Positions 1,504-7,695 of a stretch of 64,000 nucleotides of DNA are shown piece after piece. Source of the DNA: Patescibacteria group bacterium (lineage in GTDB: Bacteria; Patescibacteriota; Dojkabacteria; JAKAPS01); contig JANWIC010000003.1 in the NCBI GenBank assembly GCA_025450075.1, forward strand, positions 32,800-96,799, read 5' to 3'. The notes beneath the pieces are model-generated. The model was not told the origin of the DNA. It saw only the letters and a list, made by a program, of their open reading frames with translations, and made no database searches. A program made the position numbers and the translations under genes. Every line of letters starts with the position of its first letter. Positions within the stretch are counted from its first letter, which is position 1.

Positions 1504-1635
1504 TAATTCGCAATCAAAAATTGTTTTGTTATTCTTTTTGTACTTTGACAACTGAATAATGGTAGAATAAGTGCGATAAAGTCAATTTCTTTTTTATACA
1601 GTAACCAGCGTTAATTTATTAACGCTTTCTAATTT

Positions 1636-3133
<1,498 letters not shown>

Positions 3134-3274
3134 CTAAGGAGTGTTTAATCCATTTATCACTTTTGTGATAATAAAAAAACATCCGAAATTGTCCGCACAT
3201 TCTACCATTATTTAGTTGCCAAAGTAGCACTTTTAAAGTACAATTAAACTGGCTTGTAGCCTAGTTTTTGCTTC

Positions 3275-3351
3275 GGGCAACTAGCTCAGTTGGTTAGAGC
3301 GCAGTCCTGATAAGACTGAGGTCCATGGTTCGATTCCATGGTTGCCCACCA
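3275..3351 (+). tRNA. tRNA-Ile (anticodon GAT), with encoded CCA
   Basis: Cloverleaf GGGCAAC...GTTGCCC acceptor stem. Anticodon loop CTGATAA. TTCGATTCC T-loop. Sits in the 16S-23S spacer. Confidence 0.85.
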
Positions 3352-3358
3352 TTTTAGC

Positions 3359-3431
3359 GGGGATGTAGCTCAGTTGGTAGAGCATCGCATTTGCAATGCG
3401 GTGGTCAGGAGTTCGAATCTCCTCATCTCCA
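3359..3431 (+). tRNA. tRNA-Ala (anticodon TGC)
   Basis: GGGGATG acceptor stem with the G3:U70 Ala identity pair. Anticodon loop TTTGCAA. TTCGAATCC T-loop. Confidence 0.85.
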
Positions 3432-4171
3432 TATAGCAAGCATATATGAAGTGTATGCTTACTATATATGTCAAATCATTTTTGGCATATATGAGAGTTT
3501 AGCTCATTGAAAACTGAATAGAATGAAAAAACGACACACAGATATTTATTTGTTTAATTATTTGTGGGTATAAAAATTTCAATTTCGAATCAATGATCAC
3601 TTTAGTAAAATAATTAAAGAGCATATGGTGGATGCCTTGGTGTAAGAAGCCTATGAAGGACGTCCATACCTACGATAAGCCTTGAGGAGCTGGTAAAGAA
3701 GCGTTATTACTCAGGGGTCTCCGAATGAGGAAACTCATCCCTTTATGGGATATTCATTCTCCGAATAAAATAGGGAATGAAAGGGTACCTGGTGAACTGA
3801 AACATCTTAGTAACCAGAGGAAAAGAAAGAATATTCGATTCTCTTAGTAGCGGCGAGCGAAAAGGGAAGAGCCTAAACCTTATTATTGTTACGATATTTT
3901 CGATTCTGTTTACAGAAGAGACTATATCAGCGTTTTACAGACGTATCTAATAAGGGGTTGCAAGATATAGCGTGTTATGACTGTATAGCATAACAGGAAG
4001 TAAAAAAATTTGATTTTAGGAGAAGAATGCTGGAAAGCAACACCAAAGAGTGTGACAGTCACGTATCTAAAAATTTCAAATCTTCTTAACTATATTCTTA
4101 AGTACTACGGGACACGTGAAACCCTGTAGGAATCTACCTCGACCACGAGGTAAGGCTAAATACTTCTTACA

Positions 4172-4216
<45 letters not shown>

Positions 4217-5654
4217 GGGAGGGGAGTTAAAAGTACCTGAAACCATATGCTTACAAACAGTTGGAGGGTGAAGTTATCCAGTTTACTGGATACGCCTGAC
4301 AACGTGCCTATTGAAGAATGAGCCGGCGAGTTGTGTTCCAGTAGCGTTAGGTTAAGCTTTTAAATAAGTTGAGCCAAAGCGAAAGCGAGTCTTAAAAGGG
4401 CGATTTAGTTGCTGGAACTAGACCCGAAACCGTGTGATCTATCCATGGACAGAGTGAAGTCTTGAGAAATCAAGATGGAGGCTCGAACCAGTTAACGCTG
4501 AAAAGTTATTGGATGATCTGTGGATAGCGGTAATATGCCAATCGAACACGGAAATAGCTGGTTCTCCCCGAAATAGCTTTAGGGCTAGCCTTGAAATTTA
4601 AATTGCAGAGGTAGAGCTCTGATTGGATCGTTGGGGGTCTTTATGACCTACCACATCCTGTCAAACTACGAATGCTGTGATGTACATTTCAGGAGTTAGA
4701 CTATGAGGTCGAAGCTTCATCAGTCAAAAGGGAAACAGCCCTCATCGCCAATTAAGGTCCCTAAATTTAGTCTCAGTGGAAAAGGATGTGAAAGTCCTTA
4801 GACATCCAGTATGTTGGCTCAGAAGCAGCCATCATTTAAAGAGTGCGTAATAGCTCACTGGCAAAGGAAATTTGCACCGACAACGTAACGGGGCTTAAGA
4901 CTAATACCGAAATTGCGGGATTGTAGAAATTTATTTCTATGATCGGTAGGGGAGTGTTCTATATTCCACGAAGGTAGACCGTAAGGACTGCTGGAGAGTA
5001 TAGAAGTAAGAATGCCGGCATGAGTAGCGAAAGATATGTAAAAAACATATCCACCGCATGCCTAAGGGTTCCTCGGCTATGTTAATCATCCGAGGGTTAG
5101 TCGGTCCTAAGCTGAGAGCGAAAGCTGTAAGCGATGGACAACAGGTTTATATTCCTGTACTAGTATTTGTTCGTTATCAACAATGGGGTGACCGGGAAGG
5201 AGAACGTAAAGAGCTTTATGGTTAAGCTTCTAAGCAGCAAGGTAGGATTAGCAGGCAAATCCACTAATCCGTTACGTCGAGCTGTTATGGGGAGTCTGGT
5301 AGCAATACCGGGCGACTTTACTATTCATCCTGCAAGAAAAACCTCTAGCGAGAACAAATCTAACCGTACCGTAAACCGACACAGGTGGGCGAGTAGAGTA
5401 TACTAAGGTGATCGGGATATCTTCTCTTAAGGAATTCGGCAAACTGCTGTCGTAACTTAGGGATAAGGCAGCCCATGGGTTTTAATTCATGGGGACACAA
5501 ACCAGGCTCGAGCGACTGTTTAACAAAAACACAGGTACCTGCTAACTCGAAAGAGGATGTATAGGTGCTGACACCTGCCCAATGCCAGCATATTAAAGAA
5601 GTGGGTCATTCCGAGTTTACTCGGATGAAGCTTGCAACTGAAGTACTGGTCAAT

Positions 5655-5695
<41 letters not shown>

Positions 5696-6252
5696 CGTCG
5701 CTTGATAGGCGACCCGCACGAAAGGTGTAACGACTTGAGCGCTGTCTTGAGAGGAGGCCCGGCGAACATTGAAATGGCTGTGAAGATGCGGCCTACCCAC
5801 ACCCGGACAAACAGACCCTGTGGAGCTTTACTAAAACTTGGCATTGGATTAGGTTCATTGATGTAGAGTATAGGTGGGAGACTTTGAAGCAGTTCCGTCA
5901 GGAATTGTGGAGTCAACAGTGTAATACCACCCTTTAATGTTTCTGATTCTAATTTGAGCCGTAATCCGGTTCAAAGACAGTGTCTGGTGGTTAGTTTGAC
6001 TGGGGCGGTTACTTTCTAAAGTGTAACGAAAGTACTCAAAGGTTCCCTCAGTTCCAATGGAAACGGAACAAAGAGTGTATTGGCATAAGGGAGCTTTACT
6101 GTTACACCTACAAGTGGAGCAGTTGCGAAAGCAGGACAAAATGGCCCTTAGGTGGCATGTGGATGCGCCTAAGATTAATGGATATAAGCTACCCCGGGGA
6201 TAACAGGCTAGTCTTGCCCAAGCGTTCATAGCGACGGCAGGGTTCGGCACCT

Positions 6253-7086
6253 ACAACTAACACAACGGGGCGCGGTAGAAGTAATTCTATTAGCACTGTT
6301 ATAAAAATTTAATTATCAGCTCATAACGGTGGAGTCCTAATTAGGTATATAATATACCTGATGGATAATACCGTGGGAAGTCTAACAAATGAACAAAAGT
6401 CAATTCTCATAGGAACTCTTTTAGGAGATGGTTTTATGAGAAAAAAGAAGAACGCTTATTTAGAAATAAACCATTGTTATAAACAAAAGGCATTGGTTGA
6501 TTGGATCTTTAATAACTTTAAGTCGTACGTTAATACTCCTCCAAAAATAAGAAGAAATAATGGAGCAAGAGAAGCTTATAGATTTTCTACAAGAAGTCTT
6601 CCAGTTTTTACTACTTAATTATGACTTATTTTATAAAAATGGAGTGAAGCATATTCCAAACGATTTAATTATTGATCCACTTGCATTAGCTGTATGGTTT
6701 ATGGATGACGGAAATAAATCTAGATCATCAATATATCTAAATACACAACAGTTTATTCTAAATGATCAAATTCAATTAATGAACATTTTAAGAAAAGAGC
6801 TTGGAATCGAATCAACTCTAAATAAAGATAAAACTTATTATAGAATTAGAATAAGAACAAGCAGTACTCCAAAATTTGTTTCACTAATTGATCAATTTAT
6901 ATTGAAAGATTTTCGATATAAATTACCACTTTGTTATGACCCCGTATCGACTTAGAACATAATGTTCTGGAGTTCTCTTTAATATAGAGAGCTAAAACGC
7001 TGACTCCTACTCTTTAATATGACGAATTAAAGACAAGAGGATGAAGGTATAGTCAGTTCTTGTAAGTAATTACGAGGTATTTTACG
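6253..7086 (+). mobile_element. Putative group I intron in 23S rRNA, inserted after the U equivalent to E. coli U2500, carrying a LAGLIDADG homing endonuclease ORF
   Basis: 834 nt of non-rRNA sequence separate ...GGCACCU from CGAUGUCGG, which are adjacent in intronless 23S. The upstream exon ends in U and the insert ends in G, which is the group I splice-site convention. The insert encodes a protein with two LAGLIDADG motifs. Confidence 0.7.
6361..6955 (+). pseudogene. Double-motif LAGLIDADG homing endonuclease gene, split by a +1 frameshift near 6560-6618 (ORFs 6361-6618 and 6560-6955)
   Basis: Motif 1 LIGTLLGDGFM lies in the first ORF and motif 2 AVWFMDDGNKS in the second. The two ORFs overlap in different frames, so the gene is either a decaying endonuclease or contains a sequencing error. 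Confidence 0.7.
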
Positions 7087-7122
7087 CGATGTCGGCTCGT
7101 CACGTCCTGGGGCTGGAGAAGG

Positions 7123-7153
<31 letters not shown>

Positions 7154-7578
7154 TGGCACGTGAGCTGGGTTCAAACCGGCGTGAGCCAGGTTGGTCTCTA
7201 TCCGGTGTGGGCGTTGGATTTTTGAAGGGAGTTCGTTCTCAGTACGAGAGGACCGGAATGAGGAAACCTCTGGTGCATCAGTTGTTCTACCAAGGGCATC
7301 GCTGAGTAGCCAAGTTTCTATTTGGATAAGTGCTGAAAGCATATAAGCACGAAGCCAATCCCAAGATGAGAAATCCTTCTTAAGACCCCTTGTAGACTAC
7401 AAGGTATTTGAGTTCTAACGCAATTATGGAGCAATCTATATGCGTGTTAGTCCTCTTTATAGGCTCTAGGTGTAAGTACAGCAATGTATTCAGCCGAGGA
7501 GTACTAATCGGTCGATAATTTTACTAAAGTCGATCATTTCGAAATTAGATCATTCTATTCAGTTTCAAGGAGCTAAAT

Positions 7579-7695
7579 TCCTGGTGATGTTAGCGGAGTG
7601 GAACTACCTTAAACCATCCCGAACTAAGCAGTAAAACGCTCCATCGCCGAAAATACTTTCCCCATGGGGGATGGGAAGATAGGTAATTGCCAGGA
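7579..7695 (+). rRNA. rrf: 5S ribosomal RNA
   Basis: CCTGGTGATG...CCGAACT...GGGAAGATAGGTAATTGCCAGGA. The helix I ends pair and the conserved CCGAAC loop C is present. It lies about 50 nt after the 23S 3-prime end. Confidence 0.85.

Follow-up and report, generated by a model that had tools for sequence, protein, structure and literature searches.

An insert of 834 nt (positions 6253..7086, + strand) in the 23S rRNA gene of a CPR (Patescibacteria) bacterium is, with high confidence, an IA-type (IA3-like) group I intron of the mobile kind, located at the site LSU/2500. Its endonuclease gene is broken by an extra base, unless that base is an assembly error, and the intron is therefore probably immobile while still able to splice. 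Positions throughout refer to the window, which is the whole stretch of 64,000 nucleotides that was analysed.

An insertion in the peptidyl-transferase centre

The window's start holds a complete rRNA operon on the + strand. Its 16S, 23S and 5S genes all score as full-length rRNAs in cmscan, and the insert lies in the second of them:

1634..3133, +, 16S rRNA gene (cmscan)
3275..3431, +, two tRNA genes (cmscan)
3603..7528, +, 23S rRNA gene, a complete bacterial LSU of 3926 nt against a model of 2925 positions (cmscan)
6253..7086, +, the whole group I intron as interpreted here, 834 nt, between the equivalents of E. coli U2500 and C2501 (cmscan break, MAFFT)
7580..7695, +, 5S rRNA gene (cmscan)

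In local cmscan the 23S match is interrupted between model positions 2526 and 2527, which correspond to window positions 6252 and 7087; GGCACCU ends at 6252 and CGAUGUC begins at 7087. Alignment by MAFFT with E. coli rrl likewise gives a single large insertion of 834 nt, between E. coli 2500 and 2501. The DNA on the two sides of the insert reads GGCACCT and CGATGTCGG. The insert is preceded by U6252 and its last base is G7086. Since its first and last bases (A and G) differ from the adjacent exon bases, the boundary cannot be shifted. A preliminary description of this DNA had placed an 834-nt insertion at the equivalent of E. coli U2500, following a U, ending in G, and lying between flanks that are contiguous in intronless 23S. 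These coordinates, the site and the two ends are correct, because cmscan, MAFFT and the fixed boundary agree, and the flanks realign with E. coli to a continuous 23S carrying one 834-nt insertion. The insertion point falls within the universally conserved GGCACCU/CGAUGUC of the peptidyl-transferase centre, and the GC content of the insert is 26–30% versus 43–48% for the flanking rRNA.

Shorter insertions relative to E. coli are also present in this 23S gene, of 42 and 77 nt (3875–3916 and 3936–4012) near E. coli 269–288 and of 51 nt (7405–7455) near E. coli 2831; these probably represent expansion segments or short intervening sequences.

The genes nearby are ordinary bacterial housekeeping genes, encoding S1, a ClpB/ClpA-family AAA+ ATPase, RadA, Rho, LeuRS and PriA. 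Rho has relatives at 92% identity, and the best named ones (68–72%) belong to Ca. Dojkabacteria (WS6) and Patescibacteria. The host of the intron is a CPR bacterium.

A group I core shared with relatives at the same site

Species-representative genomes were scanned with the alignment of the endonuclease as query, and at least 540 related stretches were returned. The comparison of introns is based on the best 80 of these loci, which carry L-numbers (L001 is E. coli rrl). An insert of 770–910 nt is found at the identical 23S site in 72 of the best 80. The non-coding ends of the introns are clearly homologous among the loci and together spell out a full group I core; the 23S exons of the window and those of the loci with the nearest introns share only about 70–74% identity. 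At L010, L011, L012 and L023 the 3′ exon motif was missed by a strict pattern, and a looser one finds it about 810–900 nt past GGCACCT; these four are probably ordinary members of the family. L011 and L012 have an additional copy of GGCACCT.

The core elements of the window copy are listed here, with their conservation among the relatives:

6247..6252, +, 5′ exon strand of P1, GCACCU, with U6252 forming the U·G wobble at the splice site; wobble kept in 70/70 members, P1 93% canonical
6262..6273, +, internal guide sequence; ACAACG (6262–6267) pairs with the 3′ exon CGAUGU as P10, and GGGCGC (6268–6273) pairs with the 5′ exon as P1
6274..6291, +, P2 hairpin with a GUAA (GNRA) loop; 97% canonical, compensatory changes at 5–7 of 7 pairs, loop L2 GNRA in 70/70
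6316..6320, +, P3 5′ strand UCAGC, partner 6999–7003; 96–97% canonical, compensatory changes at 4/5 pairs
6326..6374, +, P4-P5-P5a domain, with P4 at 6326–6331/6369–6374, J4/5 GA, P5 at 6334–6337/6363–6366, P5a at 6343–6359 and J5/4 AA; P4 99% canonical, inner P5 pairs 99–100% with UA/CG covariation (36/32), MFE fold in agreement
6375..6382, +, P6 5′ strand GGG-AA-GUC, the ORF occupying the P6 loop; 98–100% canonical, CG/UA and UA/CG compensatory changes
6938..6943, +, P6 3′ strand GACCCC (comparative alignment)
6949..6952, +, P7 5′ strand GACU, partner 7051–7054; invariant in 70/70
6953..6993, +, P7.1 (6953–6969) and P7.2 (6971–6993), peripheral hairpins typical of subgroup IA (window MFE fold); with each member folded separately, exactly two hairpins between P7 and the P3 3′ strand in 62/66 and none in 2
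6999..7003, +, P3 3′ strand GCUGA (comparative alignment)
7005..7041, +, P8 hairpin; basal 4 pairs 95% canonical, compensatory changes at 3
7042..7054, +, J8/7 (UGAAGGUAU) and P7 3′ strand AGUC, together the 'S' element; matches the RF00028 consensus GGAUGAAGAUAUAGUC
7056..7086, +, P9.0 (7056–7057/7084–7085), P9 with a GUAA loop (7059–7076) and omega-G 7086; loop L9 GNRA in 66/70, terminal G in 52/71
7087..7092, +, P10 3′ exon strand CGAUGU (comparative alignment)

Across the family the guide consensus is ACAUCG-GGGGUGC, which pairs with CGAUGU of the 3′ exon (P10) and GCACCU of the 5′ exon (P1). P4 is ACGGUG/UACCGU, with J3/4 UYAUA, J4/5 RA and J5/4 AA. P6 is GGG-AA-GUC...GACCCC with the whole ORF in its loop, and J6/7 is GUAWC; J8/7 is UGAAGRUAU, and P7 is the invariant GACU/AGUC.

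Covariation was scored over 57 core pairs from P1 to P10 in 70 members, aligned by MAFFT from sequence only with the P6 loop removed. The pairs are 90.5% canonical, and 32 of them have changes on both sides. The covariation score of 0.376 stands against 0.147±0.005 for shuffled data (reached in 0/300 shuffles), and sliding the 3′ partners by 1–3 columns gives 0.065–0.094 with 36–41% of the cells pairing. A separate pair counter applied to 24 diverse members (alignment A2) found 88.1% paired and 26 compensatory pairs, with a score of 0.291 versus 0.134±0.007 shuffled (0/500) and 0.067–0.101 for slid partners. Most of the covariation comes from P2, P3, P5, P6, P8 and P9. No signal is obtained from P7 and most of P1 and P4, because they are invariant. 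P10 is 81% canonical across the family, and covariation is impossible there since the 3′ exon is invariant. P1 gains support from locus L030, where the exon reads GACACCT (GGCACCT in the others) and the guide GGGGTGT (GGGGTGC in the others), so that a G-to-A change is matched by a compensatory C-to-U change. Column-wise pairing is low (38–45%) for P5a, P7.1, P7.2 and the distal part of P8, because MAFFT cannot align variable hairpins. The group I interpretation offered in the preliminary description is thus supported by a P1–P10 core that covaries across relatives; the guide sequence and the P3–P7 core that it had proposed to look for were both found by comparative analysis.

P7.1 and P7.2 mark the subgroup as IA. 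The finer designation as IA3-like would follow from the architecture (an LSU/2500 site and an ORF in P6) and from comparison with the literature. Two members, L068 and L079, have neither hairpin, GACT being followed directly by ACACGCC, and P7.1 and P7.2 are therefore dispensable peripheral elements.

A natural ORF-less copy of 257 nt sits at the identical 23S site in L054 (2192–2448), whose record is labelled Chloroflexi. It retains every core element, and its P6 is capped by a GAAA loop. A related endonuclease is encoded about 550 nt downstream in this locus (3001–3549), presumably in a second intron.

When the ORF is deleted from the window intron, the MFE has a z of −4.15, and the fold independently yields P2, P4-P5, P7.1, P7.2, P8 and P9. 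An 11-base string, CTCTTTAATAT, is present twice, in P7.2 (6975–6985) and in P8 (7010–7020). Because it occurs in both (inverted repeat I13), the P7.2 5′ strand has a potential second partner in the P8 3′ strand, and this cross-pairing is a possible misfolding alternative.

Insensitivity of the general Rfam model

A search with the Rfam model RF00028, whose gathering score is 50 bits, had been suggested as a check of the group I identity, with the lack of a detectable core counting against it. The model does not recover the intron. No match to it was obtained on the whole insert (6150–7200) with E up to 10, nor on the ORF-less L054 copy (2170–2470) with E up to 1. The 3′ part alone (6940–7095) gave 15.6 bits, below the gathering score, with GGAUGAAGGUAUAGUC aligned to the J8/7-P7 consensus at positions of about 219–240. 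Beyond this weak partial match, no other Rfam family matched the insert, its 3′ part or the ORF-less relative. A search of the whole window likewise left RF00028 short of its gathering score. A naive run of RF00028 under that rule would lead to a wrong rejection of the intron; the core is seen by comparative analysis only.

Nawrocki, Jones & Eddy report that RF00028 detected none of their IA3 and IB4 introns and that subgroup-specific models had to be used (PMC6125680). Because the same insensitivity is reported there, the failure of RF00028 here is a limit of the model, with the structural feature intact. Surveys that class rRNA insertions by RF00028 may count the LSU/2500 family as unclassified, since both tested members score below the threshold.

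An endonuclease gene broken by one base

The P6 loop carries the gene of a homing endonuclease, read in two pieces:

6361..6955, +, I-SceI-like LAGLIDADG_2 homing-endonuclease gene with a +1 frameshift (ORFs, Pfam, homologues)
6615..6618, +, frameshift site, one extra base (best family-HMM fit, homologue alignment)

The reading frame is interrupted and is represented by two ORFs in different frames. Frame A (6361..6618, 85 aa) contains motif 1, ILIGTLLGDG; frame B (6560..6955, 131 aa) contains motif 2, LAVWFMDDG, and its stop is at 6953–6955. The two-motif LAGLIDADG protein recognized in the preliminary description is correct as to both motifs, and the family is LAGLIDADG_2; that the gene is frameshifted into two ORFs had gone unremarked. 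Unless the assembly is in error, a single extra base breaks the gene. Deletion of any one base between 6590 and 6618 results in a 197-aa protein. The family HMM is fitted best by removal at 6615–6618 (335.7–338.8 bits), and the protein then reads ...SLPVFTTNYDLFY... as in the relatives. Repair within the T5 run at 6605–6609, by loss of one T, was also considered and gives a poorer family-HMM fit. Programmed +1 frameshifting was judged by eye and rejected, because the A site has no slow or stop codon as in prfB.

The repaired protein matches Pfam LAGLIDADG_2 (PF03161) with 143.7 bits (E 7e-42, cut-off 25) over profile positions 2–168 of 168, including both motifs, and the nearest solved structures are those of I-SceI (E 3e-13). 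More than 900 homologues of the endonuclease occur in public data. They are mostly intact, of about 194 aa and 60–69% identity, and labels of Ca. Daviesbacteria or Ca. Shapirobacteria are frequent among them. No near-identical copy by which to judge the frameshift was found, the metagenome scan giving nothing closer than 61%, and an exact-sequence search with the 131-aa ORF found no other contig carrying the identical sequence. The contig that carries the 92%-identical Rho stops short of the rRNA operon.

The gene and the ribozyme overlap at both ends. The 3′ strands of P5 and P4 and the 5′ strand of P6 (6361–6382) also specify the first eight codons, M-D-N-T-V-G-S-L, which are strongly conserved across the family, and the last codons overlap the P6 3′ strand, J6/7 and P7 (6938–6955). 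The same bases are therefore constrained by both the protein and the ribozyme.

Predicted splicing and the rival explanations

Splicing would proceed by the group I pathway. P1 would form between the guide sequence at 6262–6273 and the six bases that end the 5′ exon, U6252 contributing the U·G wobble, and P10 between the guide and the six bases that open the 3′ exon. P7 (GACU/AGUC) would bind an external guanosine, which would attack after U6252; we take the pair G6949:C7054 to be the binding site of this guanosine, by analogy with P7 of Tetrahymena. The terminal G7086 would then occupy the same guanosine site, and the exons would be joined to GGCACCU-CGAUGUC. In relatives with an intact gene, the endonuclease is expected to cut intron-less 23S rDNA at the site (GGCACCTCGATGTCGG), through which the intron may spread by homing.

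The helices that hold the substrate are unusual in the window copy. P1 has 5 of 6 pairs and one A·C mismatch involving C6271, the guide being GGGGCGC versus the consensus GGGGUGC; P10 has 5 of 6 pairs and one A·A mismatch involving A6265. Each mismatch is found in 4/70 members. The intron begins with A, where the remaining 70 of the 71 members have U or C. The mismatches and this A could weaken splice-site selection. Together with the frameshifted endonuclease/maturase ORF, they speak for the view that autonomous splicing has been lost, either because splicing is inefficient or needs a host protein, or because the operon is a decaying copy. Some bacterial LAGLIDADG proteins are indeed maturases, a Thermotoga example being cited in PMC3984707. 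Such a loss is nonetheless improbable. All core helices from P2 to P9 are canonical in the window copy, the GGGGCGC guide also occurs in three relatives with intact ORFs (L006, L016 and L080), and the full-length scores of the 16S, 23S and 5S genes speak against a decaying operon. Moreover, CPR bacteria commonly carry just one rRNA operon per genome (PMC11270868), and an unspliced peptidyl-transferase centre would therefore be lethal. An intron that retains splicing is thus preferred, and the oddities of its substrate helices with the frameshift suggest a late phase of the homing cycle, in which the endonuclease decays but the ribozyme persists.

It is less probable still that the insert is an intervening sequence or an expansion segment, either retained or excised by RNase III without ligation. 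The scores of RF00028 below threshold would agree with it, and short intervening sequences of the RNase III type exist in 23S genes of CPR (PMC11270868). However, no inverted repeat links the ends of the insert (6253–6280 versus 7060–7086), and the site is in the peptidyl-transferase centre, away from surface helices. The lack of a terminal stem and the conserved site argue against an RNase III-type sequence, and the complete, covarying group I core stands against either form of this explanation. A group II intron or an archaeal-type bulge-helix-bulge (BHB) intron can hardly be entertained: LAGLIDADG genes are indeed known from BHB introns of archaeal rRNA and from some group II introns, for instance in CPR 16S genes (PMC11270868), but no group II family matched in Rfam on 6150–7200 with E up to 10, the same survey found none in CPR 23S genes, and the helices found are those of group I, with a BHB motif looked for by eye only.

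Distribution of the family and members ending in A

The preliminary description had held introns at this site to be uncommon, typical of a few lineages, and a mark of the lineage. Neither view is supported. The related stretches number at least 540, and the best 80 of these are spread over many phyla, with Actinomycetota, Acidobacteriota, Chloroflexota, Elusimicrobia and Omnitrophota among the record labels (all taxon labels are as deposited). The intron is not a lineage marker, because its family occurs in many phyla; the sites of rRNA insertions are also unrelated to host phylogeny in CPR, according to the CPR survey of 2024 (PMC11270868). The same intron family occupies the same site in L021, L036, L042, L043 and L046, on contigs of 0.27–1.24 Mb labelled Actinomycetes/Thermoleophilia, in L018 and L020 (Pyrinomonadaceae, Acidobacteriota), in L034 and L065 (Omnitrophota), and in L044 and L048 (Elusimicrobia). 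In view of these records, the family is not confined to CPR lineages with small genomes.

The terminal base of the intron is G in 52/71 members and A in 19/71 (27%). The omega-A members are L002-L005, L007, L008, L022, L026, L028, L030, L031, L033, L039, L044, L048, L053, L071, L072 and L075. In L030, for example, the intron ends in ...AACAAA before CGATG. The boundary of these introns cannot be moved so as to end on a G. P7 is GACU/AGUC, unchanged, in all 19 omega-A members. To our knowledge, the only precedent for a missing omega-G is one 23S intron of Coxiella; judging from the title of their 2007 work, Raghavan and co-workers reportedly described a Coxiella burnetii 23S intron without the canonical omega-G. 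The window copy has an omega-G, unlike that Coxiella intron, and the 19 of its 71 relatives have none. The Coxiella burnetii introns Cbu.L1917 and Cbu.L1951, from the same 2007 work as cited in PMC11270868, are bacterial 23S group I introns at sites other than that of the window intron. That a large IA3-like family at LSU/2500, below the RF00028 threshold in the two members tested, spans many phyla beyond CPR, with about a quarter of it ending in omega-A over an unchanged P7, is a proposal that we rate just short of probable.

Relation to known introns

The omega intron of yeast mitochondria, which encodes I-SceI, resembles the window intron in being of group IA, in lying in domain V of the LSU and in encoding a monomeric two-motif LAGLIDADG protein of the same Pfam family. 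It differs in its site (about L2449), and the similarity of I-SceI to the window protein is distant. In the yeast intron the ORF is in another loop, and the subgroup is a different one.

A close likeness by description is to the IA3 introns at LSU/2500 and LSU/2593 of archaeal metagenome assemblies, which carry the endonuclease gene in P6 (PMC6125680). They share with the window intron the site LSU/2500, the LAGLIDADG gene in P6, the negative result with RF00028, and P3 and P6 strands that span the ORF; the host of the window intron, in contrast, is bacterial (CPR). A text search of the literature for 'L2500' found no papers.

Insertions are also frequent in the 23S genes of CPR bacteria. In the survey by Tsurumaki et al. 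2024 (PMC11270868), 82% of these genes have insertions, with 45% classed as group I by Rfam, and group-I-like insertions at sites 23IS6-23IS14 cluster around the peptidyl-transferase centre. These insertions resemble the window intron in host group, gene region and LAGLIDADG_2 proteins of about 200 aa. As in the family described here, a single site can hold versions with and without an ORF, and some ORFs are degenerate. The positions given in the text of the survey are 1917, 1931, 1952, 2593, 2604 and 2657, with 23IS9-11 unnumbered; one of the latter is likely to be site 2500. Since the survey classified by the Rfam model, the family of the window intron may sit among its unclassified insertions.

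Implications

The intron is real and ordinary, a further member of a kind already documented in uncultivated bacteria. It has little consequence for basic biology, because CPR 23S genes were already known to carry LAGLIDADG group I introns in their peptidyl-transferase region. Its value lies in annotation, as a group I intron of the LSU/2500 type may be present even where a search with RF00028 comes back negative. Gene callers predict spurious 'hypothetical proteins' within rRNA genes that hold such introns, and both assemblies and rRNA-based surveys can be disrupted by them. If the wider family is as proposed, published counts of group I introns in bacterial rRNA are underestimates, and the family would provide a natural series for how omega-A introns complete exon ligation. 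The window copy itself would illustrate a stage expected late in the homing cycle, with the ribozyme retained and the endonuclease gene decaying.
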